Positions 5,906-40,034 of a stretch of 64,000 bases of DNA are shown here, in pieces. The stretch is taken from positions 736,001 through 800,000 of the forward strand of contig CP045477.1 of the NCBI GenBank assembly GCA_009392915.1, in the 5' to 3' direction. This stretch comes from Candidatus Forterrea multitransposorum CG_2015-17_Forterrea_25_41 (lineage in GTDB: Archaea; Iainarchaeota; Iainarchaeia; Iainarchaeales; CSSED10-239). Numbering within the stretch: position 1 is the first letter of the stretch; every line of letters begins with the position of its first letter. Both the position numbers and the translations under genes were made by a program. Under the pieces are notes generated by a model. That model did no database searches. It had not been told where the DNA came from and saw nothing but the letters and a program-made list of their open reading frames with translations.

Positions 5906-6304
5906 TCACAAGTTTTTTAAAAGTTTGCTTTTTTCTCTTAAAATCACCTTAATTTCTATATTTTCTCCTTTAGAATTGTAAGCTTTAAAAGAAAATAAAT
6001 CATAAGGATGATATACAATAATATTTATATCTTTTGATTGAAAGAAAGAAAGATCTGCTCTAGAAGGATATCCGTTTCCTGATGGGTGTGAATGAACAGA
6101 ACCATTTATTGACATAGAAAGAGGTACAAAATCAAGTCTAATTACTGCAGAATTTTCATTACTATATGTTTGGGGTATAATATATATATCTTCAATAATA
6201 TTATTTTTTGTATAAAGCATTCCAGAAAATTCTCTTGGATAAAAAGATTTTGAAAATTCCATTATACTTTCAAGGACATCTTTATAAATATACCATTCTA
6301 CCAT
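5906..6304 (-). CDS. JAMM/MPN+ family metalloprotease
   Basis: 132 aa with an upstream Glu (REFSGML) and the HSHPSGNGYPSRAD block, matching the JAMM motif E...HxHx7Sx2D. Confidence 0.7.
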   Translation of the reverse strand: MVEWYIYKDVLESIMEFSKSFYPREFSGMLYTKNNIIEDIYIIPQTYSNENSAVIRLDFVPLSMSINGSVHSHPSGNGYPSRADLSFFQSKDINIIVYHPYDLFSFKAYNSKGENIEIKVILREKSKLLKNL

Positions 6305-6356: not shown

Positions 6357-7103
6357 ATGAAAAGAAAAATATTAATTACTGGTGGTTCTAGCGGGATTGG
6401 TAAAGAATATGCATATCAATTTGCTAAATTAAAAAAAGATTTAATCTTAGTTGCAAGAAACGAAATTGAACTTAAAAAAATTAAAAAAGATTTAGAGAAT
6501 AAATATAAAATTAAATGTGAATATTTAATATTTGATCTTTCAAAGTTAGATAAAATAAATCAACTTTGCAAGATTATTGAAAAAGAAAATATTGAAATAT
6601 TAATTAATAATGCAGGTTTTGGAAACAGAATTCCTTTTTCAAAAACAAATTATTCTATTACACAAAACATGATTAATGTTCATATCACTGCAACAACATT
6701 ACTTACAAGAGCTGTTTTAGATCAAATGATAAAAAGAAACTCAGGAAAAATTATAAATGTAGCATCTCTTGCAGGATATTTGTTTACTTCTAAAAGTAAC
6801 ATCATATACAATTCAACTAAAAGATACATAATACATTTTTCCAAAAACTTACAAGATGAAATTAAAAAACAAAACAAAAATATTAAAATTCAAGCACTTT
6901 GTCCTGGGTTTACAAAAACTAATTTTGATAAACATGCAATCTTTAAAACAATGCTTCCAAGATTACCTTCTTTTATGTACATGGAAGCAAAAGACGTGGT
7001 TTTAAAATCTATAAAAACATTAGAGAATAGAAGAGTAGTATATATTCCTAGTTTTAAAAATAAAATATTATATTTTTTATTAAGACTTAATTTTTATAGA
7101 TAA
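6357..7103 (+). CDS. short-chain dehydrogenase/reductase (SDR) family oxidoreductase
   Basis: TGGSSGIGKEYA Rossmann motif, NNAG, and the catalytic YxxxK (YNSTK). Confidence 0.85.
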   Translation: MKRKILITGGSSGIGKEYAYQFAKLKKDLILVARNEIELKKIKKDLENKYKIKCEYLIFDLSKLDKINQLCKIIEKENIEILINNAGFGNRIPFSKTNYSITQNMINVHITATTLLTRAVLDQMIKRNSGKIINVASLAGYLFTSKSNIIYNSTKRYIIHFSKNLQDEIKKQNKNIKIQALCPGFTKTNFDKHAIFKTMLPRLPSFMYMEAKDVVLKSIKTLENRRVVYIPSFKNKILYFLLRLNFYR

Positions 7104-8281
7104 AACAAGAGAGTTGGGAGCATTATATATCCCATTAAATACACTCTTGATTTATTAAAAACTAAAGGCACAAAACCTATTAAAAAACTTAAAAAGAAAA
7201 CTATAAGAGTCTTAAAGTCAGATAAAAAAATTATAAAAATAAAACTAATTATTAAAACAATAATATTTAATTTATTTAAATTTTTTGAATTAAAAAATAA
7301 AATAATATCTTTAACTATTGACAAAAGAATAAAAATAGTTAAACTAACTGTTAAAAGAATTGCAGAAATAAACAAAACTAAATCTGATTTTAAAAGAACT
7401 AATTTTTCAGAAAGTAAAATTGCAAAATAACCAAGTCTTGGTTTATTAAAAAACATTGCAAGAAAATAAGAAAAAATTAAAGCACTAATTGAAATACTTG
7501 AAAAAATAATTAAATAATTATAAGTAGATATTTTTTCTTTAAATCTGGAAAAAATTACAGCACCTAGAGAAGATGAAAAAGAAGGCACAAGTATTACAAA
7601 TAAAGATGCTAAAGAACCAAAAAAAGAATAAAAATAAGAATTTTCTAAAGAAGGCAAGAAAGAATGATTTGTTTTTTGATAAATATTATTGTGTTTTTTT
7701 TCAAAAATAGATTTTAAAAGTAAAGGAAACGTGAAAAGACCCATTACACAAATAAATAATGGTTCTTTTACAAAATAATTATATTTTAAAGTAAATAAAC
7801 CTAAAAGACCAGATGAAAAGATAATAAAAAAAATTATTAATTTATCTTTAATTGATTTATAGGAAAAAATAAAACTTATTATTGTAAAAATTATTGCAAA
7901 AGAAATTAAAAAATTAAAACCAATAAAAAAAGTAAATAATAAAAACAATAAAGGTAAAAGTAAAATAGAAAATAAACTACCAAAAAAAGAACCTATAAAA
8001 CAAAGAAAAATACCATCGTATGCTTGTTGTTTTAAAAATAACCTATGAAGAGGAAATAAAGACATTATGTTTTCTGTGTTTGGAACAGAAAAGAATGTTT
8101 GAGGAATATAATTTGTAATTAATTGAGATATTGAAAGAGATAAAAAGAAAAATAAATAATTTGGAAAAATTAAAAAAATACTAAAAGAAATAAAAAGATA
8201 AGAAACAAAATTAATATGTAAAGAAGGAATTAAACCTAAAAGAACACCAGTTAAAACCCCTAATATAACCTCTATAATCAT
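7094..8281 (-). CDS. polytopic integral membrane protein, unknown function (last gene of the pilus-locus operon)
   Basis: 395 aa, hydrophobic throughout with many predicted TM helices. It shares strand and tight spacing with the upstream pilus genes. Confidence 0.45.
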   Translation of the reverse strand: MIIEVILGVLTGVLLGLIPSLHINFVSYLFISFSIFLIFPNYLFFFLSLSISQLITNYIPQTFFSVPNTENIMSLFPLHRLFLKQQAYDGIFLCFIGSFFGSLFSILLLPLLFLLFTFFIGFNFLISFAIIFTIISFIFSYKSIKDKLIIFFIIFSSGLLGLFTLKYNYFVKEPLFICVMGLFTFPLLLKSIFEKKHNNIYQKTNHSFLPSLENSYFYSFFGSLASLFVILVPSFSSSLGAVIFSRFKEKISTYNYLIIFSSISISALIFSYFLAMFFNKPRLGYFAILLSEKLVLLKSDLVLFISAILLTVSLTIFILLSIVKDIILFFNSKNLNKLNIIVLIISFIFIIFLSDFKTLIVFFLSFLIGFVPLVFNKSRVYLMGYIMLPTLLFYL

Positions 8282-8647
8282 TTAATCCTCAAATTTATAT
8301 AATATTATTTCTGGTTTGTTTTGATAAAGTGTATATTTACCAGTTATTTTTATTTCTTTTTTAAAAGAAAATGCATTTTGTAGTAAATCAACATTAGTTT
8401 TTGATGGATTAAAATAAACCACATCTATGCATGAAGAAAGATTACATATTTTAAAAAACAAATTATTGTTTTCAAGAGAAAAATCTTTTAAATTTCCTGA
8501 AACTAACACTACTTGTTCCAAAAGAGAAGAATCTGGTGATAAGAGGTCTAAAATAGGTGCTTTAAAAAAAAGAGTGCAAAAAAGAAAAATTAAAAGTGAG
8601 ATTATAATTGTTAAAATTAAAAATAAATTTAATTTTTTTTCATCCAT
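8282..8647 (-). CDS. single-pass membrane protein, unknown function
   Basis: 121 aa with an N-terminal TM segment (LNLFLILTIIISLLIFLFCTLFF). Start abuts the stop of the downstream gene. Confidence 0.35.
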   Translation of the reverse strand: MDEKKLNLFLILTIIISLLIFLFCTLFFKAPILDLLSPDSSLLEQVVLVSGNLKDFSLENNNLFFKICNLSSCIDVVYFNPSKTNVDLLQNAFSFKKEIKITGKYTLYQNKPEIILYKFED

Positions 8648-8651
8648 ACTT

Positions 8652-9143
8652 TTATTTAATAATTTTTTTTATTTTTACAGGTTTTTTATTTACAAAAAAT
8701 TTAGATAATTCAATTAAAATTACAGTGCCTTCTTTTAAAGGTTTTGAATATTTTAAAGAAAATTCTTTATTTAAATTAAAGAAAGGATCTTTAATTTTAA
8801 AATAAACTTCTTTAGAAGTGCTTTTTGTAACAACTCCATAAGTTATGTTAAATAATACTTTAAATAAATATAAATAAAGTACAACAAGACACATAAAGAC
8901 TAATAAAAAATAAATATGTGTGATATATTGAGAAATAATAAACATCCCTAAAATAGATGTAAACCCAATACCTACATAATTATATTTTGCTTTAATTAAC
9001 TTATAATTACCAATTTCTTTAATGTAGAATAAAAAAGTTAAAAGCATTAATAGTATTTTTAAAAATAAATTACCAGGAACAATTAAATTCACAATAATTG
9101 AAAATAAAAAAATAATCTCTAAATAAATAATATGCTTATCCAT
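8652..9143 (-). CDS. integral membrane protein, unknown function
   Basis: 163 aa with several hydrophobic helices. It sits within the pilus gene cluster. Confidence 0.4.
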   Translation of the reverse strand: MDKHIIYLEIIFLFSIIVNLIVPGNLFLKILLMLLTFLFYIKEIGNYKLIKAKYNYVGIGFTSILGMFIISQYITHIYFLLVFMCLVVLYLYLFKVLFNITYGVVTKSTSKEVYFKIKDPFFNLNKEFSLKYSKPLKEGTVILIELSKFFVNKKPVKIKKIIK

Positions 9144-9159
9144 AATTTAATTTCACCTA

Positions 9160-9522
9160 TTAAATACATTCTAAACTAATACTAATATTATCAAACTTTG
9201 TTCTATCTAACAAACCATTAGTTAGTGTTGTGTAATTATAATCATCAGGAACTATTGGACAATTAGTTTCAAGTCCTTTATTTAAATAAACAATCATATC
9301 TAAGTTATCATTATCAAATACATAATTAATAGTGTTAATTGAATAAGAATGATTATATCCAGCGATATATTTTAATGTTAAATTTTTTGTTTTATGCATA
9401 GCAATATTAATATCAAAAGTTGATGTTAAAGTTGCAACTACAGTTATAGCTATAACCATTACAATTAAAAGAATAATTAAAAACTCTAAACTAGTTTGAG
9501 CTTTTTTATCTTGAAGCAACAT
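9160..9522 (-). CDS. class III signal peptide (type IV pilin-like) protein
   Basis: N-terminus MLLQDKKAQTSLEFLIILLIVMVIAITVV has a charged region, then A/Q-T-S-LEF, then a hydrophobic helix. This resembles archaeal prepilin signals. Confidence 0.55.
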   Translation of the reverse strand: MLLQDKKAQTSLEFLIILLIVMVIAITVVATLTSTFDINIAMHKTKNLTLKYIAGYNHSYSINTINYVFDNDNLDMIVYLNKGLETNCPIVPDDYNYTTLTNGLLDRTKFDNISISLECI

Positions 9523-9982
9523 CTATATCTCCAGCAATAGTTTTTTCAACAACTAAATAATTATTAAACCCTGGTCCAACTTCATCACAAGTAAAATCTA
9601 CATCTCCAATAGATACTAATTTTTCAAAAGTACAGATGTTTGTAGTAGAATCACATGCAGAGATATTAGGTTTAGGATTTTGAGAAGAAATTGATATTTG
9701 GTATTCAATAATGTTTGTTGCAGAATCACAGTTTATAATTTTTGCATTATCAGGAAGATAAAAATAAACTAATCTTTTACCATATCCAGGAGAACTTGCA
9801 AAAGATGCTAAATCATCTCCAAGTTTATCAATAGATTGTTTTGTTTGAGTAATATTATAAATATCACCTACAATATTTTCTGAAAAAACAATATTTGGAT
9901 ATATGATTGCTTGAAAAAATAATAATAAAATAGATATTAAAATAATGTATTCAATTGCAATTTGTCCTTTTATATTTTTCAT
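9506..9982 (-). CDS. class III signal peptide (type IV pilin-like) protein
   Basis: N-terminus MKNIKGQIAIEYIILISILLLFF carries the KGQ/IEY prepilin-peptidase cleavage-site pattern. Four Cys lie in the C-terminal domain. Confidence 0.6.
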   Translation of the reverse strand: MKNIKGQIAIEYIILISILLLFFQAIIYPNIVFSENIVGDIYNITQTKQSIDKLGDDLASFASSPGYGKRLVYFYLPDNAKIINCDSATNIIEYQISISSQNPKPNISACDSTTNICTFEKLVSIGDVDFTCDEVGPGFNNYLVVEKTIAGDIDVASR

Positions 9983-10013
9983 TTAAAATTCCTTCCTTTT
10001 ATATTATTTAAGC

Positions 10014-11135
10014 TTAAAAAATAAACCAAATAAAATCTCCAAAAATATTTAATAAAATATACGCTATTAACACAGAAGGGGTAAATGGAATTGTTTTTTT
10101 TAAAACTATCTCCTTCTCTAAATTATGTTTATATGAACTCTTTAAAAAGGTTATGTCTTCAGGTAAAAGACCCCCTATTTTCCTAGAATCTATGATTAGT
10201 TTATTTGATTTTTGTTTAGAGGTATATTCTTTTAAATAATCAATAAAGGATATTTTTTTTTCAATAACTTTTTTATTTGATAAATAATAATTATTTAAAA
10301 CAACATCTCCTTCTTTTAAATCATTTATTTTTTTACTAAAAGTTAATATCTTTGAAGAAATTATTTTATAAAAAGTTATACTTAAGAAAATAATAATAAT
10401 AGTTATAGTAATTATTAATAAATCATAGAAAACAAATATTCTTTTTGAATAAAACAAAGAATATCCAATTAATAATAAATAAAGCCCTAAAACTAAATAA
10501 TTATAGTGAAGAATATTTTGTTTTTCAATTTTTCTAAAAAACAAGATAAACATTATAGATAATAAAAAATAAATTAAAAAAGGGATATACATTTCAAAAA
10601 TATTAAAAAAAGAAGAAATTAAGAAAAGTATTAAAATAGAACTTACTAAAGAAAATAATGTGTTTTTTGTTTTTAATAAATTTATAAGTATTCTATAGTG
10701 TCTTTTAAATATAAATAAATAAATAGAACTAATTAAGAGAATAGGTGCTGTAGAAAGAATAGCAGTTAGTATTAAAGTCAAAGAAAATACAGGGATTGTT
10801 ATTATTTTAAAAGAAAATAAAAAGCCTAAAAAATTAATATTAAAAGGATTTAAGAAAGAAATTGCAGAAAACAACTTTAAATCACCACCTGCAAAGAAAC
10901 CAAACTCCCAAAGAACATACCCTACAATAAAGGTTATACCAAAAGATAAAAAAGCATTAAGAAGAATAGATATTTTTGAGAAATAAATTGTTTCTATTAT
11001 TTTAAAAATAACTCCAATAATTAATAAATATAATACTAAAAAATTTGGAACAATTCTTTTTTTAATATCATAATAACTTGCAAATAATAAAAATATCAAA
11101 GTTATTGAAAATGCAAAAAAAGGAAAGTTAAACAT
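10014..11135 (-). CDS. archaeal prepilin/preflagellin peptidase (A24 family, FlaK/PibD-like) with a C-terminal extension
   Basis: Polytopic membrane protein with D23 in SYYDIKKRIVPN and D85 in FFAGGDLKLF. These match the two catalytic Asp motifs and their spacing in FlaK/PibD-type peptidases. At 373 aa it is about 120 aa longer than usual. Confidence 0.7.
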   Translation of the reverse strand: MFNFPFFAFSITLIFLLFASYYDIKKRIVPNFLVLYLLIIGVIFKIIETIYFSKISILLNAFLSFGITFIVGYVLWEFGFFAGGDLKLFSAISFLNPFNINFLGFLFSFKIITIPVFSLTLILTAILSTAPILLISSIYLFIFKRHYRILINLLKTKNTLFSLVSSILILFLISSFFNIFEMYIPFLIYFLLSIMFILFFRKIEKQNILHYNYLVLGLYLLLIGYSLFYSKRIFVFYDLLIITITIIIIFLSITFYKIISSKILTFSKKINDLKEGDVVLNNYYLSNKKVIEKKISFIDYLKEYTSKQKSNKLIIDSRKIGGLLPEDITFLKSSYKHNLEKEIVLKKTIPFTPSVLIAYILLNIFGDFIWFIF

Positions 11136-11160
11136 ACATTATTTTCTCAACAAAAATTAT

Positions 11161-11349
11161 TTATAAAGAAGCTAAAATATTATCTCTATAAGTTAATATT
11201 TTAGATTTTGCAACAGTTATAAAACTATTTAAATTTAATATAACAATACCTGTTGTAATTACTAAAATCATACCAAAAACAATCATGATTAGATATTCAA
11301 TAGAGACTTGACCTCTTTGGTCATTTAAAAGTAAATTTAATCTATTCAT
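11161..11349 (-). CDS. small type IV pilin-like protein (class III signal peptide)
   Basis: 62 aa with N-terminus MNRLNLLLNDQRGQVSIEYLIMIVFGMILVI. Confidence 0.55.
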   Translation of the reverse strand: MNRLNLLLNDQRGQVSIEYLIMIVFGMILVITTGIVILNLNSFITVAKSKILTYRDNILASL

Positions 11350-11372
11350 AATATATAATCACTAAATCTTAA

Positions 11373-11840
11373 TTACCTTGCAACACATGAAGATGCAGGA
11401 GTTGATGGTCTTGAATGAACATTATTTTTAACAGTTATAACTGATACTTCATACTCTGTTCCAACTGAATCTACAGATAAATCACTTGCAGGAACCTGTA
11501 AAATACTAGTGCCTTCTTGAACATATAACACATCTGTTCCTGATGGATAAGGATCATTATTATCTATTTTTATTCTATAACCTGTATTTGGAGCTGAAGA
11601 TACTAAATTAATAGTTACATTTCCACTTGCAACACAATCAACACTTGTAACAATTGGTGGAACTAAAGTATTATCTAAAATAGTTGTAATAGCTTCATCT
11701 TGCTGCAAAGCAGCTTCTCTATTAGAAGCATTCATATTAGTTATTAAAATAATCACAGAAATTGCAATAATTATAGTAGCACCAATCAAAAGCAAATATT
11801 CCATTGCTCCTTGTCCTTTTTGTTTTTTTAAAAATGTCAT
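11373..11840 (-). CDS. type IV pilin-like protein (class III signal peptide)
   Basis: N-terminus MTFLKKQKGQGAMEYLLLIGATIIIAISVI, then a Ser/Thr/Val-rich probable beta domain. Confidence 0.7.
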   Translation of the reverse strand: MTFLKKQKGQGAMEYLLLIGATIIIAISVIILITNMNASNREAALQQDEAITTILDNTLVPPIVTSVDCVASGNVTINLVSSAPNTGYRIKIDNNDPYPSGTDVLYVQEGTSILQVPASDLSVDSVGTEYEVSVITVKNNVHSRPSTPASSCVAR

Positions 11841-11879
11841 AAATTACCATCTTTCTTTTAAAAATAAAAAAATAAAATA

Positions 11880-11918
11880 AAGTTGATTTTTTTTAAAAAA
11901 AAAAATCAACCTATTTTT
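11880..11918 (-). terminator. AT-rich hairpin followed by a T-tract between two pilin genes (candidate partial terminator/attenuator)
   Basis: Inverted repeat GTTGATTTTTTTT / AAAAAAAATCAAC with a T-rich run on the transcribed (minus) strand. It sits between the stop of the 172-aa pilin gene and the start of the 155-aa pilin gene. Confidence 0.3.
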
Positions 11919-11928
11919 AATTAACTAC

Positions 11929-12447
11929 TTAATCAACCCAACTAAATCTATAACCTTGAGATGTTACTGTTTGGTTATTCTTTGTTGTTTTAATATATAA
12001 GTAGTAAGAGTCACCACATTTGTTACCACTATTTAAAGTTAAATCCACATTTAAACCGTTAACTTCATTTGGATTTAAATCTGTTTCATCAATTGTCTCT
12101 AAACCAGAATTATCTGTTAATGAATCTATTGTTAATTCATTATTACTTGAATCCATGATATATAACTCGTGACTTCCACCTTCACCTAATGGTCTCCAAG
12201 AGAAATTTAAGTCAGCAGTTAATGCAGTTGAATCACATGCATCATATGCAGCAACAACTTGTACAATTTGTGATGGTTGAGGAACGTCTGTTGCTTGATT
12301 TGCTTTTTCAGCTTGAGCAGCAGCAGAGTCTCTTGATTGTCCACCCATACCTACAAGTAATGCAATAACAATAACAGCAATTAATACTGCACCACCAATT
12401 AAAAGAAGATACTCAAGAGCACCTTGTCCTTTAAATTTTTTATTCAT
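11929..12447 (-). CDS. type IV pilin-like protein (class III signal peptide), candidate major pilin
   Basis: N-terminus MNKKFKGQGALEYLLLIGGAVLIAVIVIALLV. It is the first large pilin after a 130-bp AT-rich promoter-like gap and is followed by the hairpin above. Confidence 0.7.
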   Translation of the reverse strand: MNKKFKGQGALEYLLLIGGAVLIAVIVIALLVGMGGQSRDSAAAQAEKANQATDVPQPSQIVQVVAAYDACDSTALTADLNFSWRPLGEGGSHELYIMDSSNNELTIDSLTDNSGLETIDETDLNPNEVNGLNVDLTLNSGNKCGDSYYLYIKTTKNNQTVTSQGYRFSWVD

Positions 12448-12579
12448 TTTTAAACACCTTTTTTATATTTTTTAAACATCACACATAAAGTGTATAACTA
12501 ATAACTTGTACTAGTTAAATTAATTAAAATATTACATACAATATATTTATATATGTTTCTTTTCAATATTTCAAACCAA

Positions 12580-12753
12580 TTAACTATTATTAACTATTGA
12601 TTGATAGTCAGTTGCAGTCTTAACATTCTTTGCAGAAGTTTGTTTTACAAAAATTCCAACAGTTAATGCAACTAATATAACAACTCCAGTAATAATTATA
12701 AACTCTAAAGAAACCTGTCCTTTATTATCTTTTATTAATCTTCTTAATTTCAT
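12580..12753 (-). CDS. small type IV pilin-like protein (57 aa), absent from the ORF track
   Basis: My own reverse translation gives MKLRRLIKDNKGQVSLEFIIITGVVILVALTVGIFVKQTSAKNVKTATDYQSIVNNS. The KGQVSLEF class III signal matches the neighbouring pilins. Its ATG is 3 nt after the stop of the upstream platform gene. Confidence 0.5.
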   Translation of the reverse strand: MKLRRLIKDNKGQVSLEFIIITGVVILVALTVGIFVKQTSAKNVKTATDYQSIVNNS

Positions 12754-12755
12754 AT

Positions 12756-13652
12756 CTAAACCATTCCTGAAAGCATTAAATTAAGTATTACTTGAGAAAT
12801 AAAATATACTATATATCCAATAGTAATTAATACAGGGAAAAATAAAACTACAAAGCTTAAATCTCCTTCTCTCATAACACTTATCATTGATGCAGCAGCA
12901 AATATTTCAATAACAATATAAATATCTAAAAGTAAAAAGATTGTTTTTTGAGCATCTAAAGAAACTTGTAAAGCCTCTGCTGCTGCAATTCCTGAATTTA
13001 CAGCTATATCTGTTAAAAAACCAGTAATTACTCTTGTCATTCCAAAAATAAATGGAGCCACAATTGCAGAAGCAGCAACAATAAAAATTGTTTGAAGCAT
13101 TGTTTTTGTTTGTCTTTCCTTTTTAACCCTGAACAATTGTTTAGTGTCATTTGCAATTTCTTCTAAAACATCAGCTAATTGTGCACCTGTTCTTAAAGAT
13201 TCTTGAATTAAAGTAATAGTTCTTCTTACAATTTTAGATTCAATTCTTAAAGCTAAATAACTTAAAGCAACATACATTGAATCTCCCATTTCAAGTCTTC
13301 TAATAGCTTCATTAATTTCAAAAGAAAGGGGTCCGAAATCAGCAGTGGATACTTCTCTTAAAGCAAAATCAAATGAAGAACCAGCCTTCATTGTGTCTGC
13401 AATTAACTTTAAAGAATCTGGCCAATATCTTTCAATTTCTCTTATTTTTTTAAAATAAAGATACATTGGAAGACCTAAACCTAAAACTAAAGCATTTACA
13501 AATAATAAAAGTCCGATCTTTATATCTAAGAAATAACCGATTATCCCTAAGAATATACTTGCAAAAAATATTAAAACAATCCATATTTTTGCAGGAATCT
13601 TTATTTTTAAAGCATATAAAAATACTTGATATCTGTCTAATCCTTTACTCAA
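12756..13652 (-). CDS. type II secretion system F domain (TadC/FlaJ-like) pilus platform membrane protein
   Basis: 298 aa with TM helices flanking a cytoplasmic domain (FGPLSFEINEAIRRLEMGDSMYVALSYLA), which resembles the GspF/TadC conserved region. Confidence 0.65.
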   Translation of the reverse strand: MSKGLDRYQVFLYALKIKIPAKIWIVLIFFASIFLGIIGYFLDIKIGLLLFVNALVLGLGLPMYLYFKKIREIERYWPDSLKLIADTMKAGSSFDFALREVSTADFGPLSFEINEAIRRLEMGDSMYVALSYLALRIESKIVRRTITLIQESLRTGAQLADVLEEIANDTKQLFRVKKERQTKTMLQTIFIVAASAIVAPFIFGMTRVITGFLTDIAVNSGIAAAEALQVSLDAQKTIFLLLDIYIVIEIFAAASMISVMREGDLSFVVLFFPVLITIGYIVYFISQVILNLMLSGMV

Positions 13653-13658
13653 ATTAAA

Positions 13659-14804
13659 TCACATTTTTGGTTCAATCATTTTAATATAATATACTAAAAA
13701 GATGAATATTATTGGTAGTGCTACTGCAAAAATTAAAGTTAATGTTGTTGGTGTCATAACTCCTGGTAAAAACAAAGATCCATCTTGTCCTAGAGGAGCA
13801 TTTGCAATTGCACCTAAAATTGCAGCAAATACAGGCATAACAATAGCCATGAAAATAAAAATAATTCCAAAGAAATTCATTTTTTCTCCGAATGTTTTAG
13901 TAGATTCTAAAAGATCAAAAGATACTGTGTCTGCAACACTATTAATTGTGCTTGCCAAATTACCACCTGTATTTAATGTTCTAACAATGTGGAAAAGTGC
14001 AATGTTATAATTTTTAGATTGACTTCTTAATGCAGAATGTCTTAAAGCTGTTTTTGTATCAGTACCATTTTCAATTTCTAAGATGGTTCTATTCATTTCT
14101 TCTGATAATACACCATAATCATTTGCAGCAACAGATTGTAATACTTTATAAAGACCAATACCTGCTTGAAGTTCTGTTGCAATATGTCTTAAAGCAAATG
14201 GAAGTTCAATATCAATATAGACTCCTCTGGATTTTGCTTTTTGCATTGGAATAACATATGAAAGAATAAAAACAAATACTAAAAATAAAATTGGCCAAAT
14301 AAAAAGGATACTAACTGTCCATAAAGGCATAGTTGCAACAAAAATAATTAATAATAAAAAAGATAAAAAACTTGCAATCAATAAAGAAAATATAGTTGAA
14401 AGAACTAAATGTTGTACTAATGTTCTTTTATAGTTTGCAGAGGTTAAATAATAAGATATTTTTTTACCTAAAGAATTCTTTAAAATATATAAAACCACAG
14501 AATCAACTAATTTTTTAAAAGGTTTATAATATTTAGCAGCACTTTTTTCAAGAGTACCTTCTGTATTTGCAGCTAATTTATTTTCAGCATCAACATCAAA
14601 CTGAGAAAGTCTACCTTGAGAAATTACTTCTCTTAGTTCTTTTAAATGACCTTCAGATAAAGATTCAGATGTAATATTTTTGTCCTTTTCTTTCATTTTT
14701 TTAACAATATTTTGAACAGCATCTAAATCTACATCTAAGTCGTCTTTCTTGGATTTATTTTTTTCTAAATCACTTTTTAAAAGTTCTAATTTTTTTGAAT
14801 CCAT
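13659..14804 (-). CDS. type II secretion system F domain (TadB/FlaJ-like) pilus platform membrane protein
   Basis: 381 aa with LPFALRHIATELQAGIGLYKVLQSVA, the characteristic GspF-domain motif, plus TM helices. It lies directly downstream of the ATPase. Confidence 0.7.
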   Translation of the reverse strand: MDSKKLELLKSDLEKNKSKKDDLDVDLDAVQNIVKKMKEKDKNITSESLSEGHLKELREVISQGRLSQFDVDAENKLAANTEGTLEKSAAKYYKPFKKLVDSVVLYILKNSLGKKISYYLTSANYKRTLVQHLVLSTIFSLLIASFLSFLLLIIFVATMPLWTVSILFIWPILFLVFVFILSYVIPMQKAKSRGVYIDIELPFALRHIATELQAGIGLYKVLQSVAANDYGVLSEEMNRTILEIENGTDTKTALRHSALRSQSKNYNIALFHIVRTLNTGGNLASTINSVADTVSFDLLESTKTFGEKMNFFGIIFIFMAIVMPVFAAILGAIANAPLGQDGSLFLPGVMTPTTLTLIFAVALPIIFIFLVYYIKMIEPKM

Positions 14805-14840
14805 TAAAATCTTTTTTTTAATTTATTTTAAATATATATA

Positions 14841-16856
14841 CTATCTTTTTAGTATATATTCTTTTTGGACTTCATGTGCAACATCATTAATAGCCCTAAT
14901 TTTCTTAGAACGTAAATCTTCAAGGATTTTTGCTCTATCACTAATTTTATTTAAAATATCTTGATCATTTAAGTTTGTGTATGTTTTAATTAAATCAAAG
15001 TAAAGAATAGGTTCTTTAGTTCTTTCAAGAGAATCTGTTTCAGGATTCCAAACAAAGACCATATTTATCTTTGGATCTCCATCTAACACACCCATAATCT
15101 CTGCAATTGCAGTAATTCTTCTAACTTGTCCTTTTGAAGTTCTTAATCTTTTTTGAATAATTATAAAATCAATTCCTGCAAGCATTAATGGAGGAACATC
15201 CATTGGTGGTGAAGTTAATCTTACAATTGTTTCTTTTGCAGAATTTGCGTGCACTGTACCCATACAACCATCGTGACCAGTGTTCATGGCAGTGAAAAGA
15301 GTAGTTGCTTCTTTGTGTCTAATTTCACCTACAACTATTCTATCAGGTCTCATTCTTAAAGTGTTTTTAGTTAAGATTTCTAAACTTAATTCACCTTTTC
15401 CTTCTAGGCCTGGTGGTTTTCCTTCAAATCTAATTACATGCTTTATAGGAAGTCTTAATTCCGCAGTGTCTTCAATTGTTAATATTCTGTCTGCTTCTGG
15501 AATAAAGTTTGCAAGAACATTTAATGTAGTTGTTTTTCCAGAACCAGTACCACCTGAAATTAAAATATTTGCAGGTTTTGCACCAAATCCTTCAACAACA
15601 CACCACAAAAATGCAGCTACTTCTAAATTAAGTGTTTTAAAGTTTATTAAATCAACTATAGTGTAAGGATCATCTCTGAACTTTCTAATAGTAACTGTAG
15701 AACCATCAATTGATGCTGGAGGCACAGTAGCATTTACACGAGAACCATCTGGAAGTCTTGCATCTAAAAGAGGATTTGAAATATCTACACTTCTTCCTAA
15801 AGATCTTGCAATTTTATCAATAATATCATTAATTCCATCATCTGAAAAGAAAATAATATTTGTTGTCATCATTCCATAATCTACATGGTAAACATATACT
15901 GGTTTTTTAGGACCAACAATCATAATTTCTTCTAATTTGTCATCTTCAAGTAATGGTTCAATCACACCATAACCAGTCATTTCTTTAACAACTGCATCTG
16001 CATAAAAAGGATAAAGATGTTTTGGGATATTTATTTCTTGTGCAGTTTCTAAAATATCAATTACTTTTTGATAATATATGTTTTTTCTTTGAAGAGGATC
16101 TCTTATTTTATAAGGATCAGAAGCAACAAGTCTTGTGGTTGCTTCTTTTAAAGTATTAATTATAATTTTTTGACTAGGATTTGGTTTTGGAACAGGAACA
16201 GAATAGTGTAATATAGATTGAGTGTCAAGTCTATAAATTTTAACTTCACCATATTTTGTAACTAATGTAGCCCCATCAATTTTTTCTTCTTGTTTTTCAA
16301 AAGCAGAATCTCCTTTTGTTTCAGAAAGTTCTGAAGATTTTATTTCTGAATTAGTATTAAGTGCTTTTAATTTTGAAAGGGCATCAAGTTTATTTTGTTT
16401 TTGTGTATCTGTATCAAAAACAGAATCTTTATCATCTTCAATTAATTTTTTTTCTTTTTCAGATAAATCACCAATATCTAATGTTTTTGATTTTTCTTGA
16501 GAGTCTTGTTTTTCAGCATTTTTTGCTTTTAATCTTTCAAATAAAGAATCTTGTGATTCTGTTGAATTTACTTTTTCTTGTTTTTTAGAAGAATCAAATT
16601 CAGATAAATCCATTATTTTTTTGTTTTGTGTAAAAGAAGATGGCTCTTGTGATTTATTGTGAGAATCAACATCAACAGATTTTTTTTCAAAAAAGTTATC
16701 TTGCTTTAAAGTTTCTTTTTTAGAATCTAGAGAAATTTCTTCTTTCTTTTCAGGTGCATTTTCAGCAGCTTTTCTAGCTTCTTCTTTTTGTTTATCTTTT
16801 TCTAAACTATATTTTCCAACTAAATCATCAATATATGAGGGCATAAAATTATTCAC
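14841..16856 (-). CDS. type IV pilus assembly ATPase (FlaI/PilB/TadA, secretion ATPase family) with a long disordered N-terminal extension
   Basis: Walker A GGTGSGKTTTLN, Asp box and Walker B (ILTIEDTAELRLP), and His box (MNTGHDGCMGTVHANS). The first ~230 aa are K/E/D/S-rich low complexity. Confidence 0.9.
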   Translation of the reverse strand: MNNFMPSYIDDLVGKYSLEKDKQKEEARKAAENAPEKKEEISLDSKKETLKQDNFFEKKSVDVDSHNKSQEPSSFTQNKKIMDLSEFDSSKKQEKVNSTESQDSLFERLKAKNAEKQDSQEKSKTLDIGDLSEKEKKLIEDDKDSVFDTDTQKQNKLDALSKLKALNTNSEIKSSELSETKGDSAFEKQEEKIDGATLVTKYGEVKIYRLDTQSILHYSVPVPKPNPSQKIIINTLKEATTRLVASDPYKIRDPLQRKNIYYQKVIDILETAQEINIPKHLYPFYADAVVKEMTGYGVIEPLLEDDKLEEIMIVGPKKPVYVYHVDYGMMTTNIIFFSDDGINDIIDKIARSLGRSVDISNPLLDARLPDGSRVNATVPPASIDGSTVTIRKFRDDPYTIVDLINFKTLNLEVAAFLWCVVEGFGAKPANILISGGTGSGKTTTLNVLANFIPEADRILTIEDTAELRLPIKHVIRFEGKPPGLEGKGELSLEILTKNTLRMRPDRIVVGEIRHKEATTLFTAMNTGHDGCMGTVHANSAKETIVRLTSPPMDVPPLMLAGIDFIIIQKRLRTSKGQVRRITAIAEIMGVLDGDPKINMVFVWNPETDSLERTKEPILYFDLIKTYTNLNDQDILNKISDRAKILEDLRSKKIRAINDVAHEVQKEYILKR

Positions 16857-17838
16857 CTTGTTTATTTGAGTTTATTAAAATAATTTGTGCAAGTAAAGCT
16901 TCAAGCTGTATTCTATCATTTGCACCTTCAACTAATCTAAAATTAATTTCTGCTATACGATCAATAATTTTTACTTTTAAATTAATTGTAATTTTATCTT
17001 CAGGATAGACTATAAATTTTTTATAAATTTGATTAATTACATCTTCTCCACTTAGACCTTGCTCAAAAAGAAGTTTTTCCATAAAACCTCTTGCTTTTAA
17101 AAAATCCCCTTCAAGACAAGCATCAATCATATGAAAAATGTCTTGTGGTTGAGCAGAATTTGAAACTTCATAAATTATTTCTTTTGTAATTTTATCCCCA
17201 ATAGATGAAGCTGCTTGAAGATAGTTAATTGCAGTTCTCATATCTCCTTCACAAACATCATAAATTGCATCTAATGCATCTTGATCATAAGAAACATTTT
17301 CTTTTGTAAGAATCATTGTTAAATATTTAATAATATCTTCTTTTAAGATTGGTTTAAATTTATAAAGAGAACATCTACTTTGTATTGGTGTTATTAATTT
17401 TGAAGAATAATTTGCATTAAGAATAAACCTTACAGTACCAGTATATTTTTCCATAGTTCTTCTTAAAGCTTGTTGAGCATCAACTGTTAAGGCATCTGCT
17501 TCATCTAAGAATATTATTTTAAAGTCTGCACCTAAAGGTATTGTTCTTGAAAAATCTTTTATAGCTCCTCTAACAACACCAATACCTCTTTCATCAGAAG
17601 CATTAAGTTCTAAAAAATCTTGTGAGAAAGTATTTTGAAAAAGTTCTTTTGCAAGAGCTACTGCTGAACAAGTTTTTCCAACACCTGGAGGTCCTGCAAA
17701 TAAAAGATTAGGCATACTTCTTTTTTCTACATATTTTTTTAATCTAGGGACTACATGTGTCTGACCAACCATTTGATCTAAAGTCTTTGGTCTATATTTT
17801 TCTGTCCATGGAAAAGAAGCATCTGTTTTTAATGTCAA
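16849..17838 (-). CDS. rfcS: replication factor C small subunit
   Basis: WTEKYRPKTL, Walker A GPPGVGKT, DEAD-like IIFLDEAD, and the SRC motif PIQSRC. At 329 aa it is typical for archaeal RfcS. Confidence 0.9.
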   Translation of the reverse strand: MTLKTDASFPWTEKYRPKTLDQMVGQTHVVPRLKKYVEKRSMPNLLFAGPPGVGKTCSAVALAKELFQNTFSQDFLELNASDERGIGVVRGAIKDFSRTIPLGADFKIIFLDEADALTVDAQQALRRTMEKYTGTVRFILNANYSSKLITPIQSRCSLYKFKPILKEDIIKYLTMILTKENVSYDQDALDAIYDVCEGDMRTAINYLQAASSIGDKITKEIIYEVSNSAQPQDIFHMIDACLEGDFLKARGFMEKLLFEQGLSGEDVINQIYKKFIVYPEDKITINLKVKIIDRIAEINFRLVEGANDRIQLEALLAQIILINSNKQGE

Positions 17839-31910: not shown

Positions 31911-32756
31911 ATGGATATTTTAGAAAATAATCTTAAATTAATTAATAAATTTAAAAATGAATTAAGTATTGAAGGATATAGTGATAAAACAATTGATATG
32001 TATTCTATGTATATTACATTATTTTCAAAATTTATTAAAAAAGACTTAATTACTATAAATAGTGATGATGTAATTGAATATTTATCTTATTTAAAACAAG
32101 AAAAAAAAGCTGAAAGTACAACTATGAACTTAGTTCTTTCTGCAATTAAGCATTTTTATTCTAATTTTTTAAAAATAGATTTAGAACTTAAAATTAAATT
32201 ACCAAAAAAAGCTAAAAAGATACCTGTTGTACTAACATCTAAAGAAATAATTTTACTTTTAGAAAATATAACTGATTTAAGAAATAAATTAATTACACAA
32301 TTTATTTTTTCAACAGGAGTTAGAATTTCTGAATGTATGGAAATGAAGTATAAAGATTTAGATTTTAATGAATATACAGGAAAAGTTGTTTCTGGTAAAG
32401 GAAATAAAGATAGAATAATAATATTATCTAAAAAATGGGTTGAAGAATATAAAAAATATCTTGAAAATAGAAAAATATCATCAGAATATTTGTTTTGTAA
32501 TAGTGTTGGAAAACCATTATCTGTAGATACTGTTCAAAAATTTTTAAAAATAGCTGCTAAAGGAGCAGGAATTGATAAAAAAGTATCTCCTCACACCTTA
32601 AGGCATTCTTTTGCAACTAACCTGCTTGAAAATGATGTTAATATTAGATATATACAACAATTACTAGGGCATGCTAATCTAAATACAACACAAATATATA
32701 CTAAGGTTAATACAAATAAATTAAAAATTATTAAAAATCCATTAGATGATTTGTAA
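31911..32756 (+). CDS. xerA: tyrosine recombinase, XerC/XerD/XerA-like
   Basis: An N-terminal core-binding domain and a catalytic C-terminus with ARG (GVRISEC), HTLRHSFAT, LLGH and the Tyr in TQIYTKV. Length 281 aa. Confidence 0.85.
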   Translation: MDILENNLKLINKFKNELSIEGYSDKTIDMYSMYITLFSKFIKKDLITINSDDVIEYLSYLKQEKKAESTTMNLVLSAIKHFYSNFLKIDLELKIKLPKKAKKIPVVLTSKEIILLLENITDLRNKLITQFIFSTGVRISECMEMKYKDLDFNEYTGKVVSGKGNKDRIIILSKKWVEEYKKYLENRKISSEYLFCNSVGKPLSVDTVQKFLKIAAKGAGIDKKVSPHTLRHSFATNLLENDVNIRYIQQLLGHANLNTTQIYTKVNTNKLKIIKNPLDDL

Positions 32757-34908: not shown

Positions 34909-35100
34909 TTATTAAATAACCTTAAAAATAGTTTATTTTTATAAAATTAGTTAAATTTATGTTTCTTTATTGATTTAAAGGTTTATTTTAACTTTATTTT
35001 TAAAATAATTAGTTTATAAGTTTTATTTGTGTTAAAAATTAGGTTTTTTGTAATTTCAAAATATGTCCAAGAAAGATAGTAAATAACTAATAATTTTGAG

Positions 35101-35175
<75 letters not shown>

Positions 35176-35255
35176 TTTTTTAAATAAATAAAAATAGTCT
35201 TAATATATATTTTAATATACCAAAATATATATAAACCTACTTAAAACAATAATTA

Positions 35256-35828
35256 TTACTCACAATGATATCCTGAAGTATTATCATTTATTTTTTCTAA
35301 TAATTCTTCTAATTTTTTAATATTTTTTTCAATAATATTTTTTTCTCTTTTAAGTTTATTAATTTTATTTTTACTATTTAATATTTCTAAATTAGCACTA
35401 CAGTTTGGACATTTAAAATTATATGCAGCAGCAACTTCAAATATAACTTCTACATTACATTTTTTAGGACAGAAAAAATAATCGTGCCCTTCTTTTTGAG
35501 TTAATTCATACTCTAGTTTTTTAAATTTTTTAATTTCTTGTAATAATAAAACATCTACAATTTTTTTATATTTTATTTCCCAAATAAATTCATACAAATT
35601 ATTTTCATTTCTTTGTTTTTTATAACATGCTATTCCTCTGAAGTGAAGACTATTTAGTGTAGATCTTACAACAGTAATTTTTTCATTTAATTTTTTAGAA
35701 ATTTCTTCTGGAGACAATCCATCATTATTAAATAATTTTATAACATTAATAGCCATTGGCCCTGCAATTTGTTCTAAAAAAATAGCTGTTGATTTATCAG
35801 ATAATAAGTCTTTTTTTAATTTATTCAT
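35256..35828 (-). CDS. tfe: transcription factor E alpha (TFE, TFIIE-alpha homologue)
   Basis: N-terminal winged helix and a zinc ribbon CPKKC...CPNC. Length 190 aa with a C-terminal coiled coil. Confidence 0.75.
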   Translation of the reverse strand: MNKLKKDLLSDKSTAIFLEQIAGPMAINVIKLFNNDGLSPEEISKKLNEKITVVRSTLNSLHFRGIACYKKQRNENNLYEFIWEIKYKKIVDVLLLQEIKKFKKLEYELTQKEGHDYFFCPKKCNVEVIFEVAAAYNFKCPNCSANLEILNSKNKINKLKREKNIIEKNIKKLEELLEKINDNTSGYHCE

Positions 35829-35869
35829 TATAACACCACTTCCTTGTATACTATAATTATGTTACAAAA

Positions 35870-36394
35870 CTATTTTAAGGAGATAACTTTTTTGCCTTTT
35901 TCTGTAGGTTCTAGTTTTATCTTATTATTTTTAAATTTATCAATATATAATGCATCAGGATTTAAAAAATTAAGAATAATTGCAAGAGCTGCAACTTCAC
36001 TATGCGGTTGATTTGTCACAGAAACATTATAGTTTGCTTTTTGATAATAAAATTTATCTACCTTAGGTCCACCAACAATAATTAATAAATCTTTATTTTT
36101 AAAATCTTTTTTAATAAAATCTATTTTTTCAACAATTTGTTCTCCATACATAGTTAGATGTATTATTATTCCTTTAAAATCATCTACAAATGTTTCTGGT
36201 AATTCAATATATTTTGCATTAAAATTTCCACCCCATTGATTACTAATAGAAATTATATTTTTTTCAAAAACATTATCTTCTATCCCTGAATAATAAAATT
36301 CATCTGCACTAAAAGCTCTAGAAACTAATGCACAATGTGTTGTAATCCTTTTATCTCTAAGTGGTCTGTGATCTAATTTTAATATTTTAATCAT
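35870..36394 (-). CDS. trm56: tRNA (cytidine56-2'-O)-methyltransferase aTrm56 (SPOUT)
   Basis: KLDHRPLRDKRITTHCALVSRAF at the N-terminus and QPHSEVAALAIILNFL at the C-terminus match aTrm56. Length 174 aa. Confidence 0.85.
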   Translation of the reverse strand: MIKILKLDHRPLRDKRITTHCALVSRAFSADEFYYSGIEDNVFEKNIISISNQWGGNFNAKYIELPETFVDDFKGIIIHLTMYGEQIVEKIDFIKKDFKNKDLLIIVGGPKVDKFYYQKANYNVSVTNQPHSEVAALAIILNFLNPDALYIDKFKNNKIKLEPTEKGKKVISLK

Positions 36395-36514
36395 TTTTTC
36401 TTACTTTTTAGTTATGTTTAATTTACAAATAAAATAGAAATTATTTATAAATGTTTAGTATATATATTATATAGTATAATCTTTTTATATATTAGGTTTG
36501 TACAATATAAAAAA

Positions 36515-36588
36515 GGATCCGTAGCTCAGTCTGGCAGAGCACTGGACTTTTAATCCAGGTGTCGTGGGTTCAAATCCCACCGGATTCA
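36515..36588 (+). tRNA. tRNA-Lys (anticodon TTT)
   Basis: GGATCCGTAGCTCAGTCTGG D-arm, anticodon loop CTTTTAA and T-arm GGGTTCAAATCCCAC fold into a cloverleaf. The acceptor stems pair. Confidence 0.9.
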
Positions 36589-36622
36589 CTTTCTATTATT
36601 TTTTATTTTAAAATAATTATTA

Positions 36623-36697
36623 GGGCTCGTAGCTCAGTCTGGTAAGAGCACTGGACTCTTAATCCAGGTGTCGTGGGTTCAAATCCCACCGAGCTCA
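36623..36697 (+). tRNA. tRNA-Lys (anticodon CTT)
   Basis: Near-duplicate of the preceding tRNA, with anticodon loop CTCTTAA and acceptor GGGCTCG/CGAGCTC. Confidence 0.9.
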
Positions 36698-36722
36698 CTT
36701 CCTTAATACTTTAAAAAATAAT

Positions 36723-36796
36723 GGTTCCGTAGCTCAGCCTGGGAGAGCAATAGGCTGAAGACCTATGTGTCGTGGGTTCAAATCCCACCGGAGCCA
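36723..36796 (+). tRNA. tRNA-Phe (anticodon GAA)
   Basis: GGTTCCGTAGCTCAGCCTGGGAGAGC, anticodon loop CTGAAGA and T-arm GGGTTCAAATCCCAC. The acceptor stems pair. Confidence 0.9.
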
Positions 36797-37407
36797 TATT
36801 TTACTTTTTTTATAAAAATAATTTCTTCATCTGTTTCTATTGCTTTTCTGGCATTATCAAAAACTTGTTTATTTATTTTTATATTTTTATTAATTAGGTT
36901 TGTTTCTGGTGAATGAATTATTATGTTATCTACGTCATATCCTGTAATTATTATGAAGTGGCCTTGAAATGCACCTTCTTTTTGAAATAGTTTATTGTAA
37001 TCTACTAATATTATCGGTACATATCCATCATTGATTTTTGTTAATATATTTTCTATTGTAATTTTTTGTTCGTATATCTTAACATTTAACATTTTTGCTG
37101 TATCATACATTTTTTTAATATTAATTAATATTTCATCTTTTAAAAATGGATTTGCTGTTAAAGAAAATTCGTCTTCTGGCAATTTAATTTCAGTTGTTTT
37201 TGTATAAAATTCAACATCAAAACCAAATTGTTTACTGACTAGTGCTAATTGCAAACTATATAATCCTTTTCCTTCTTTATAACTTAATTTGTGCTTAATT
37301 TCTTTATTTGATTTTTCTTCTTTAAAATAAGCATACACCATTTTTAGTGCTATTGGGCCGCAATCAAATTTTTCGTCTTGTTGATAATAAGGTATGTTTA
37401 AGTTCAT
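36778..37407 (-). CDS. papain-like cysteine peptidase, C39-like domain protein (tentative)
   Basis: N-terminus YYQQDEKFDCGPIALKMV matches the QxxxxxCGxAAL catalytic Cys region of C39 peptidases, with a His candidate in GHFIIITGYD. The last ~6 codons overlap the 3' end of tRNA-Phe on the opposite strand. Confidence 0.45.
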   Translation of the reverse strand: MNLNIPYYQQDEKFDCGPIALKMVYAYFKEEKSNKEIKHKLSYKEGKGLYSLQLALVSKQFGFDVEFYTKTTEIKLPEDEFSLTANPFLKDEILINIKKMYDTAKMLNVKIYEQKITIENILTKINDGYVPIILVDYNKLFQKEGAFQGHFIIITGYDVDNIIIHSPETNLINKNIKINKQVFDNARKAIETDEEIIFIKKVKYGSGGI

Positions 37408-40024: not shown

Positions 40025-40034
40025 GTGAAAATAT

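Follow-up and report, generated by a model that had tools for sequence, protein, structure and literature searches.

A type IV pilus operon of an Iainarchaeota archaeon with an OB-fold/TctA-like gene pair at its 3' end and a possible role in DNA uptake

The 64,000-nucleotide stretch of DNA analyzed here (the window; contig CP045477.1 of Candidatus Forterrea multitransposorum, positions 736,001 to 800,000) comes from an archaeon of the Iainarchaeota (DPANN) and carries a string of 13 co-directional minus-strand open reading frames (ORFs) at 7094-16856. These genes almost certainly form a complete Epd/Tad-like type IV pilus operon, and the 3' end of the string is occupied by a protein with an OB fold and a TctA-like permease, a pair that may tie the pilus to DNA uptake (Table 1). 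An earlier reading made from the DNA letters (the sequence-only reading) had given the same coordinates and protein lengths and had described the DNA as AT-rich, in agreement with a G+C content of 0.18-0.30 in the window. Spacing between the pilus-string genes runs from -17 to 36 nt, except on either side of the gene for a 172-aa pilin-like protein (132 nt before and 88 nt after). The remainder of the window encodes housekeeping functions, including PolD, RFC, MutS/L, RNR, topoisomerase I, CDC48, DnaK/J/GrpE, and EF-1alpha.

For comparison, we fetched 80 related loci (L-numbered below) around homologues of the pilus ATPase. The window ATPase is 95% identical to that of its closest genome match, a metagenome-assembled genome (MAG) of Ca. 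Iainarchaeum sp., and 59-77% identical to those of about fifteen further Iainarchaeota-like MAGs. Identity is about 50-58% to other Iainarchaeota and to Micrarchaeota, and 46-50% to the counterparts in ATPase-TadB-TadC loci of Hadarchaeota, Hydrothermarchaeota, Thermococci, and Methanobacteriota.

Table 1. Features of the pilus string in transcriptional order (values are Pfam E values; a slash marks the predicted prepilin cleavage site)
Feature	Position	Strand	Details
Pilus assembly ATPase (TadA/CpaF-like), 671 aa	14841..16856	-	T2SSE 1.5e-48
Platform protein 1 (TadB-like), 381 aa	13659..14804	-	one T2SSF domain; PF00482 5.5e-15
Platform protein 2 (TadC-like), 298 aa	12756..13652	-	one T2SSF domain; PF00482 2.6e-15
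Short Flp-like prepilin, 57 aa (mature about 45)	12580..12753	-	PF04021 7.8e-08; motif KG/QVSLEF
AT-rich intergenic gap before the 172-aa gene, 132 nt	12448..12579	-	TATA-like runs; GGTG Shine-Dalgarno 8-11 nt before ATG
Prepilin, shaft candidate, 172 aa	11929..12447	-	PF04021 above cut-off; 7-aa leader
Terminator-like hairpin and T-run directly 3' of the 172-aa gene	11861..11910	-	13-bp stem about 11882-11910; T-run about 11861-11881
Prepilin, paralogue-like neighbor of the 172-aa pilin, 155 aa	11373..11840	-	PF04021 2.3e-05; motif KG/QGAMEY
Short prepilin-like protein, 62 aa (13-aa leader, 49-aa mature)	11161..11349	-	PF04021 0.0046, below cut-off; motif RG/QVSIEY
EppA-like prepilin peptidase, 373 aa	10014..11135	-	Peptidase_A24 3.6e-13; Arc_PepC 6.7e-06
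Prepilin-like protein, 158 aa, 4 Cys	9506..9982	-	PF04021 0.0008, below cut-off; motif KG/QIAIEY
Prepilin-like protein, 120 aa	9160..9522	-	PF04021 0.0001, below cut-off; motif KA/QTSLEF
Membrane protein, 163 aa, about 4 transmembrane helices	8652..9143	-	basic (pI 10) C-terminal beta-rich domain; no Pfam family
OB-fold protein, 121 aa, one N-terminal transmembrane helix	8282..8647	-	PF01336 0.0019; invariant C68, C73
TctA-family permease, 395 aa, about 10-12 hydrophobic segments	7094..8281	-	PF01970 9.9e-23, positions 4-422 of 423

Assembly machinery and type of pilus

The ATPase carries a Walker A motif (GGTGSGKT) at residue 435, a Walker B-like IVVGEIR at residue 507, and a His box at residue 527; started at the ATG at 16844, as other gene callers have it, the protein is 667 aa long. 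Its best solved relatives in the PDB are the bacterial Tad ATPase CpaF (5.7e-74), then Archaeoglobus fulgidus GspE2 (2oap; 1.9e-64), and then FlaI (1.8e-53), and it scores below every cut-off of the NCBIfam FlaI, TadA, and BasE models. An N-terminal extension of about 200 aa, rich in Lys, Ser, Glu, and Asp (35 K, 25 S, 25 E, and 21 D in residues 1-200), is probably disordered; its length is very variable, and the matches of relatives start at points between residue 2 and about residue 200. Homologues in Hydrothermarchaeota, Thermococci, and some Iainarchaeota often have ATPase ORFs of about 990-1190 aa, roughly double the length of the window gene (L042, L047, L049, L051, L055-L057, L059, L060, L063, L065, L068, L070, L071, L074, L075, L077, and L078). 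In L057, the Pfam matches show that an intein containing a LAGLIDADG endonuclease interrupts the ORF behind the Walker region; the window ATPase has no intein.

The order ATPase-TadB-TadC is kept in nearly all of the related loci that reach far enough. The TadC-like protein aligns with the C-terminal half only of the ArlJ/FlaJ model, and its exact sequence recurs in 54 blocks of public assemblies. The peptidase has about 9 hydrophobic segments by crude hydropathy, and D23 and D85 (AGGDLK), read off the sequence, are its candidate catalytic aspartates. It aligns over the full length of the NCBIfam EppA model (4.2e-13) but reaches 49 bits against an equivalog cut-off of 450, whereas with the FlaK model its N terminus alone aligns. 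These matches to T2SSE, to T2SSF in two single-domain proteins, and to Peptidase_A24 in Pfam bear out the sequence-only reading of the string as a complete Tad/Epd-like locus with a split platform.

The same models bear on whether the locus could instead encode an archaellum for motility, or a bindosome- or Ups-type system. As such readings would have it, the ATPase scores highest, at 284 bits, with FlaI among the NCBIfam models, and ArlJ/FlaJ models give weak matches to the TadC-like protein. The cut-offs are nevertheless far from reached, both for the ATPase (FlaI, 284 against 550 bits; BasE, 175 against 1000) and for UpsF (31 against 400), and the ArlJ models give 20-70 bits against cut-offs of 400-550. 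Further, the platform is split over two genes, the closest solved relative of the ATPase is the Tad protein CpaF, and the peptidase is EppA-like rather than FlaK-like. Pfam scans of the 13 string proteins and of the window ORFs of at least 110 aa gave no member of the archaellin or FlaF/G/H/X families. The archaellum, bindosome, and Ups readings are highly improbable and were rejected on the NCBIfam cut-offs together with the missing accessory genes.

Two split platform genes, an EppA-type peptidase, and prepilins with Gln at +1 are the published hallmarks of clade 1 of the archaeal type IV pili (Makarova et al. 2016, PMC4858521). The string, with its split platform, Gln+1 prepilins, and EppA-like peptidase, fits that clade. 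Clade 1 corresponds to the Epd-like "system 1", found in methanogens, Thermococcales, and DPANN and regarded as the source of bacterial Tad pili (Sivabalasarma & Albers 2026, bioRxiv 10.64898/2026.04.22.720090). By its predicted proteins, the pilus would be ordinary for its class and of a kind already reported in DPANN; type IV pili are noted in genome papers on Diapherotrites and Micrarchaeota.

A close described counterpart, the Epd pilus of Methanococcus maripaludis, has like the window locus a single ATPase of TadA/CpaF type, a platform made of two half-size proteins encoded separately, a long peptidase of its own (EppA-like in the window), several minor pilins, and PF04021-type class III prepilins with Gln at +1. 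In M. maripaludis, however, the genes are spread over several loci (epdJKL; eppA-epdA and following genes; and a stand-alone major pilin), whereas here they form one string that also includes the OB-fold/TctA-like pair. Other differences are the low-complexity N terminus of the window ATPase, the sub-cut-off EppA score of the peptidase, and the shaft: the Epd-specific major pilin is reported to be without a globular domain, whereas the best shaft candidate here has an FN3-like one.

Bacterial Tad/Flp systems likewise share the CpaF-like ATPase, the TadB/TadC-type split platform, a peptidase without a methyltransferase domain, and Flp-sized pilins (57 and 62 aa here) beside larger pseudopilin-like proteins. 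The processing motif of Flp pilins, G/xxxxE[YF], is the same in form. Pfam searches of the string and of the window ORFs that were scanned brought up no RcpA secretin, TadD, TadG, or TadZ/CpaE, as expected for an archaeon, and the Flp_Fap model had no match in the string. The window peptidase differs from its bacterial counterparts in its archaeal Arc_PepC extension, and the host is an archaeon. The locus would work like a Tad system, yet is no bacterial Tad locus.

Six pilin-like proteins and the candidate shaft

As the sequence-only reading had proposed, six proteins of the string (57, 172, 155, 62, 158, and 120 aa) are pilin-like. All match the Class_IIIsignal family PF04021, the 57-, 172-, and 155-aa proteins above the gathering score and the 120-, 158-, and 62-aa proteins below it. 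A check of the prepilin cleavage sites gave the same motif in each, [KR][GA]/Q-x-x-[LI]-E-[YF], preceded by a leader of 6-13 aa and followed by a hydrophobic helix. When all ORFs in the six frames of the window were scanned for this motif, these six and no others were recovered, indicating that the cluster is real and not due to chance or a by-product of AT-rich DNA.

The arrangement of these genes is also conserved. Across Iainarchaeota and Micrarchaeota loci, ATPase, TadB, and TadC are followed by a short pilin, variable pilins, a second short pilin, the peptidase, and two further pilins. In DPANN loci generally, TadC is followed by one pilin of 46-61 aa, a variable slot, a second pilin of 56-63 aa, the peptidase, and the 158-like and 120-like pilins. 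The 57-aa gene, which begins 2 nt after the TadC-like gene, represents the first of these positions, an ORF of 46-61 aa directly after TadC being present in most Iainarchaeota/Micrarchaeota loci. The variable slot holds one to four genes, which in many lineages encode Flp-like pilins of 55-70 aa and in the lineage of the window the 172-aa and 155-aa proteins. The 62-aa gene always lies just upstream of the peptidase gene, a position kept in distant DPANN loci, and is the most conserved of the pilin-like genes (100% in L001 and 61-85% elsewhere); its product is a candidate minor or priming pilin. Downstream of the peptidase gene, a 158-like and 120-like pair recurs across DPANN loci; in the window, the 158-aa gene overlaps the next gene by 17 nt, and the 120-aa protein has four N-x-S/T sequons. 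Both are probable minor pilins. The 155-aa protein shows weak fn3 hints (E about 0.1) and strong divergence among relatives (26-55%), and it is probably a second shaft pilin or a minor pilin with a beta-rich domain.

For the shaft itself, the sequence-only reading had favored the 172-aa protein as the major pilin because of its own AT-rich gap and a hairpin behind the gene. Both features are there, the gap with a strong GGTG ribosome-binding site, and further circumstantial support comes from the conservation of the hairpin, the divergence and triplication of the gene, and the predicted fold; we therefore consider the 172-aa protein the best candidate and probably the shaft. Its AlphaFold2 model has a long helix (residues 10-53) followed by an FN3/Ig-like beta-sandwich, and C71 and C144 are invariant. 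The hairpin downstream folds with a z score of -2.9, and none of 200 shuffled sequences folds as well. Perfect hairpins of 11-13 bp with T-runs also lie 3' of the orthologous gene in L001-L006, and their stem sequences differ; that the structure is kept in six relatives while the stem sequence is not argues for selection on structure. A simple terminator scan did not pick up the hairpin, because its stem is AT-rich.

The gap before the gene is a putative internal promoter. Its TATA-like runs are not diagnostic, since such strings occur everywhere at this G+C content, and a scan for sigma-70 promoters was uninformative, with no excess over expectation (78 found against 81.5 expected).

The 172-aa pilin is also a hotspot of divergence. 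It is 69% identical to its counterpart in the nearest relative (L001, 14404-14940), while the neighboring genes are 90-100% identical, a pattern like that of bacterial major-pilin loci under allelic replacement or diversifying selection. The gene is present as three tandem copies in L008 (14208-16046) and L014 (14087-15947). Another assembly holds a 96%-identical allele of the 172-aa pilin (P0001). The 57- and 62-aa Flp-like proteins, which are like the major pilins without a globular domain that have been reported for Epd and Tad, remain alternative shaft candidates.

The OB-fold/TctA-like pair at the 3' end

The sequence-only reading had counted three further membrane proteins among those of the pilus. 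All three exist, but two of them constitute a separable OB-fold/TctA-like pair. The four genes at the 3' end, which encode the 120-aa, 163-aa, OB-fold, and TctA-like proteins, are separated on the same strand by gaps of 16, 4, and 0 nt, so that the start codon of the TctA-like gene abuts the stop codon of the OB gene.

The 163-aa protein was detected in the near family only, and none of 11 orthologues has a significant Pfam match. It was considered as a second OB protein, an NfeD-like protein, or a DUF2101 member; these identities were rejected for want of a significant Pfam match, and hhalign against the OB family gave a probability of 0.2%. Several orthologues end in Lys-rich tails of 25-40 residues (e.g., KKPKKVIKTRKTTNISRKKKKK; L008 18740-19390, L010 17278-17871, L012 17369-18034, and L013 12502-13131), which may bind nucleic acid on the cytoplasmic side; the window copy is tail-less.

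The model of the 121-aa protein (AlphaFold2; predicted local distance difference test score, 84.7) has the canonical b1-b3/helix/b4-b5 order of an OB fold, which probably faces outward. In Foldseek, it is closest to the AspRS anticodon-binding domain, RPA32, and ExoVII (7e-06 and above). PF01336 is matched at E<=0.01 by 16 of 22 members of this OB family, the best at 2.5e-10. The family comprises 262 representative clusters, nearly all of 108-135 aa; among 10 representatives sampled, the one named match was to Ca. Aenigmarchaeota and none was to Methanococcus.

Like the TctA subunit of bacterial TctABC, the 395-aa protein is a full-length member of PF01970. Bacterial TctA is longer, at about 500 aa. 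TctABC further includes TctB, a small subunit with four transmembrane helices, and the binding protein TctC, whereas no TctB or TctC family was matched among the proteins of the string and the TctA-like protein is partnered by the OB-fold protein instead. Where the fetched loci have a full-length TctA-like gene, a small ORF with one transmembrane helix almost always lies before it and is translationally coupled to it (about 20 loci). Word-index homologue searches, which are shallow for low-complexity membrane sequence, gave 29 matches for the TctA-like protein and 6 for the OB protein. The TctA-like gene is split into three ORFs in L002 (18596-19771) and reduced to a 52-aa fragment in L020 (13751-13909), which could be pseudogenization or assembly error; if real, the breakage implies that the module is dispensable in some lineages.

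We compared how far the pair and the other flanking genes stay linked to the pilus operon. In the near family, the RFC gene adjoins the ATPase gene in 16 of 16 loci, TctA is found downstream on the same strand in 9 of 9, and GrpE/DnaK in 7 of 9, a conservation that by itself carries little weight. In the distant loci, this flanking synteny has decayed: RFC adjacency is found in 1 of 36 and GrpE/DnaK in 0 of 15. TctA, in contrast, keeps its downstream, same-strand place in 9 of the 15 distant loci (9 of 13 when two Hadarchaeota loci are set aside), and three more, shorter distant loci also have it. L027 and L028 contain minimal operons composed of ATPase, TadB, TadC, pilin, peptidase, a small ORF with one transmembrane helix, and TctA. 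In Iainarchaeota and Micrarchaeota, the linkage thus persists beyond the surrounding synteny, a pattern that usually signals functional coupling, although it does not prove it. In the searchable literature, we found no report of this pilus operon ending in an OB-fold/TctA-like pair.

A JAB/MPN+ metalloprotease gene (5906-6304, minus strand) directly follows the TctA-like gene in most relatives and, in 6 of the 15 distant loci (two of them without TctA), has stayed close to the pilus operon. In the window, a short-chain dehydrogenase gene (6357-7103, plus strand) is wedged between the two and overlaps the 3' end of the TctA gene by 10 nt on the opposite strand.

A possible role in DNA uptake, and other genes of the window

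A pair of the same description is known from M. maripaludis, where the Epd pilus genes and eppA were among the hits of a transposon screen for transformation-defective mutants (Fonseca et al. 2023, PMC10133366). In that study, MMJJ_13020 is an OB-fold protein that has one transmembrane helix, and the adjacent MMJJ_13030 is TctA-like and has 11; in-frame deletion of either abolishes natural transformation, and each deletion was complemented in trans. A TctA-like homologue is essential for transformation in Methanoculleus thermophilus as well, and the TctA-like protein was proposed as the missing archaeal DNA transporter (PMC10133366). Compared by description, both the Methanococcus and window pairs consist of a PF01336-type OB protein with one transmembrane helix followed by a TctA-family permease of about 400 aa, without a TctB or TctC partner. 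By the insertion coordinates, the M. maripaludis pair lies hundreds of kilobases from the epd genes, whereas here it forms the 3' end of the pilus operon.

From these results, we lean toward the view that the OB-fold/TctA-like pair works together with the pilus. Whether their joint function is DNA uptake is put forward tentatively, as is our overall reading, to which we give a little less than an even chance: a clade 1/system 1 pilus operon fused at its 3' end to the OB-fold/TctA-like pair and serving both adhesion and DNA uptake. The sequence-only reading had pointed to attachment, for example to a host cell or surface; host attachment is plausible, but DNA capture or uptake is at least as well motivated. 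The stronger proposal of a self-contained archaeal competence operon, in which an Epd-like pilus, an OB-fold DNA receptor, a TctA-like translocase, and perhaps the 163-aa protein on the cytoplasmic side would act together, is possible but more doubtful.

Several observations weigh against coupling and DNA uptake. The pair was found nearby in none of four Hadarchaeota pilus operons, which are the sole loci among L058-L080 with a peptidase gene and enough downstream DNA, and TctA had no match in any fetched Thermococci or Hydrothermarchaeota locus. The synteny of the near family reaches unrelated neighbors, so that part of the linkage reflects simple descent. In other archaea (L081-L083), the pair lies far from pilus genes, beside replication genes, and is thus a module of two genes separable from the pilus. 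With a pI of about 5, the OB ectodomain is acidic, which is unusual for a general DNA binder. The known substrates of the TctA family are small carboxylates, DNA transport being hypothetical even in Methanococcus, and we know of no DPANN archaeon in which competence has been shown. Finally, the piliation state of the MMJJ_13020 and MMJJ_13030 mutants was not reported (PMC10133366), so the pair could act on the pilus instead of on DNA.

Much of this would suit a pilus that serves only adhesion to surfaces or host cells, the 163-aa protein and the OB-fold/TctA-like pair then being a small-molecule transporter module that is unrelated to it and just happens to lie downstream. Such a reading accommodates the nature of TctA as a carboxylate-transporter family, the acidic OB ectodomain, the occurrence of the pair away from pili, and the near-family synteny of the whole region, RFC and DnaK included; the FN3-like domain that the 172-aa pilin would expose is similar to those of adhesion molecules. 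It is harder to reconcile with the linkage kept in 9 of 13 distant DPANN loci after other synteny was lost, with the minimal operons of L027 and L028, with the very short same-strand gaps, and with the lack of a TctB/TctC partner among the string's proteins, and in Methanococcus, genetics joins pilus and pair in a single phenotype. We regard the adhesion-only explanation as doubtful, yet a serious contender.

The silence of the Methanococcus study on mutant piliation also leaves room for the pair, perhaps with the 163-aa protein, to be an accessory to pilus biogenesis, anchoring, or function, the transformation phenotype being indirect. Operon linkage with the pilus genes agrees with an accessory role, and lineage-specific membrane accessories are common at archaeal pilus loci (PMC4858521). 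However, the pilus operons of Hadarchaeota, Thermococci, and Hydrothermarchaeota were found without the pair nearby, the pair stands alone beside replication genes in other archaea, and its OB fold is of the nucleic-acid-binding PF01336 type, making a purely accessory role unlikely.

If the pilus and pair do serve DNA uptake, the six prepilins would enter the membrane and be cut after [KR][GA] by the EppA-like aspartic peptidase (D23/D85), leaving Gln at +1 and Glu at +5. A CpaF-like hexameric ATPase would drive a heterodimeric TadB/TadC-like platform that extrudes the pilins into a filament. Most likely, the 172-aa protein would build the shaft, burying its helix and exposing its FN3-like domain, and the minor or priming pilins would be the 57-, 62-, 158-, 120-, and perhaps 155-aa proteins. 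In Caulobacter, CpaF powers extension as well as retraction, so having one ATPase does not by itself argue against a filament that retracts. The filament would adhere and capture extracellular DNA. The OB-fold protein, anchored in the membrane and facing outward, would receive the DNA, and the TctA-like permease would carry it to the other side, alone or as a helper. Of this scheme, the analysis establishes the motifs, the folds, the identities of the genes, and their conserved linkage, whereas the shaft pilin chosen, any retraction, and the binding and transport of DNA are inferred.

The proposed logic of a filament, an anchored receptor, and a polytopic channel is the same as in bacterial competence (Com/type IV pilus, ComEA, and ComEC). 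This is an analogy only: the 121-aa OB protein is not homologous to ComEA, nor is the TctA-like protein to ComEC. No ComEC-like, DprA-like, or ComFA-like gene was seen in the window, and none of the MinD-like, thermonuclease, PC4, M50, and ArtE families of the competence screen was found among its scanned ORFs of at least 110 aa.

The channel for DNA uptake is an open question in archaea because they lack ComEC, and the OB-fold/TctA-like pair is so far the one candidate. In Methanococcus, pilus genes and pair are tied by a shared mutant phenotype alone; here they are tied physically, across two DPANN phyla. If the linkage is functional, the hypothesis of TctA as a DNA transporter would be strengthened, natural competence or DNA scavenging would be predicted in host-associated ultra-small archaea, and the string would offer a compact 13-gene cassette for heterologous testing. 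Were the competence-operon reading true, many DPANN archaea would actively import environmental or host DNA, and the locus would provide independent comparative-genomic evidence for TctA-like permeases as the archaeal counterpart of ComEC.

At the other end of the string, the gene for the RFC small subunit (16849-17838, minus strand) shares 8 nt (16849-16856) with the beginning of the same-strand pilus ATPase gene, and the pilus genes may be co-transcribed with this replication gene.

Elsewhere in the window, the most AT-rich stretch (G+C about 0.18) contains a 1162-aa ORF (42999-46487, minus strand) without a Pfam match. Its product has a lipobox-like N terminus (LLVSLSGC), a long coiled-coil-like body rich in K, E, N, and I, and a C-terminal transmembrane helix that bears a basic tail, and may be a large protein of the surface or envelope. 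The next ORF downstream (41786-42979, minus strand; 397 aa) is likewise without a family. A XerC/D-type tyrosine recombinase gene (31911-32756, plus strand) lies a few kilobases from a tRNA cluster at 35100-36797 that comprises Met, Lys(UUU), Lys(CUU), and Phe. Bacterial-type mismatch repair is patchy among archaea; in the window, bacterial-type genes for MutS, with all five domains, and for MutL are neighbors (together 37481-41789, plus strand).

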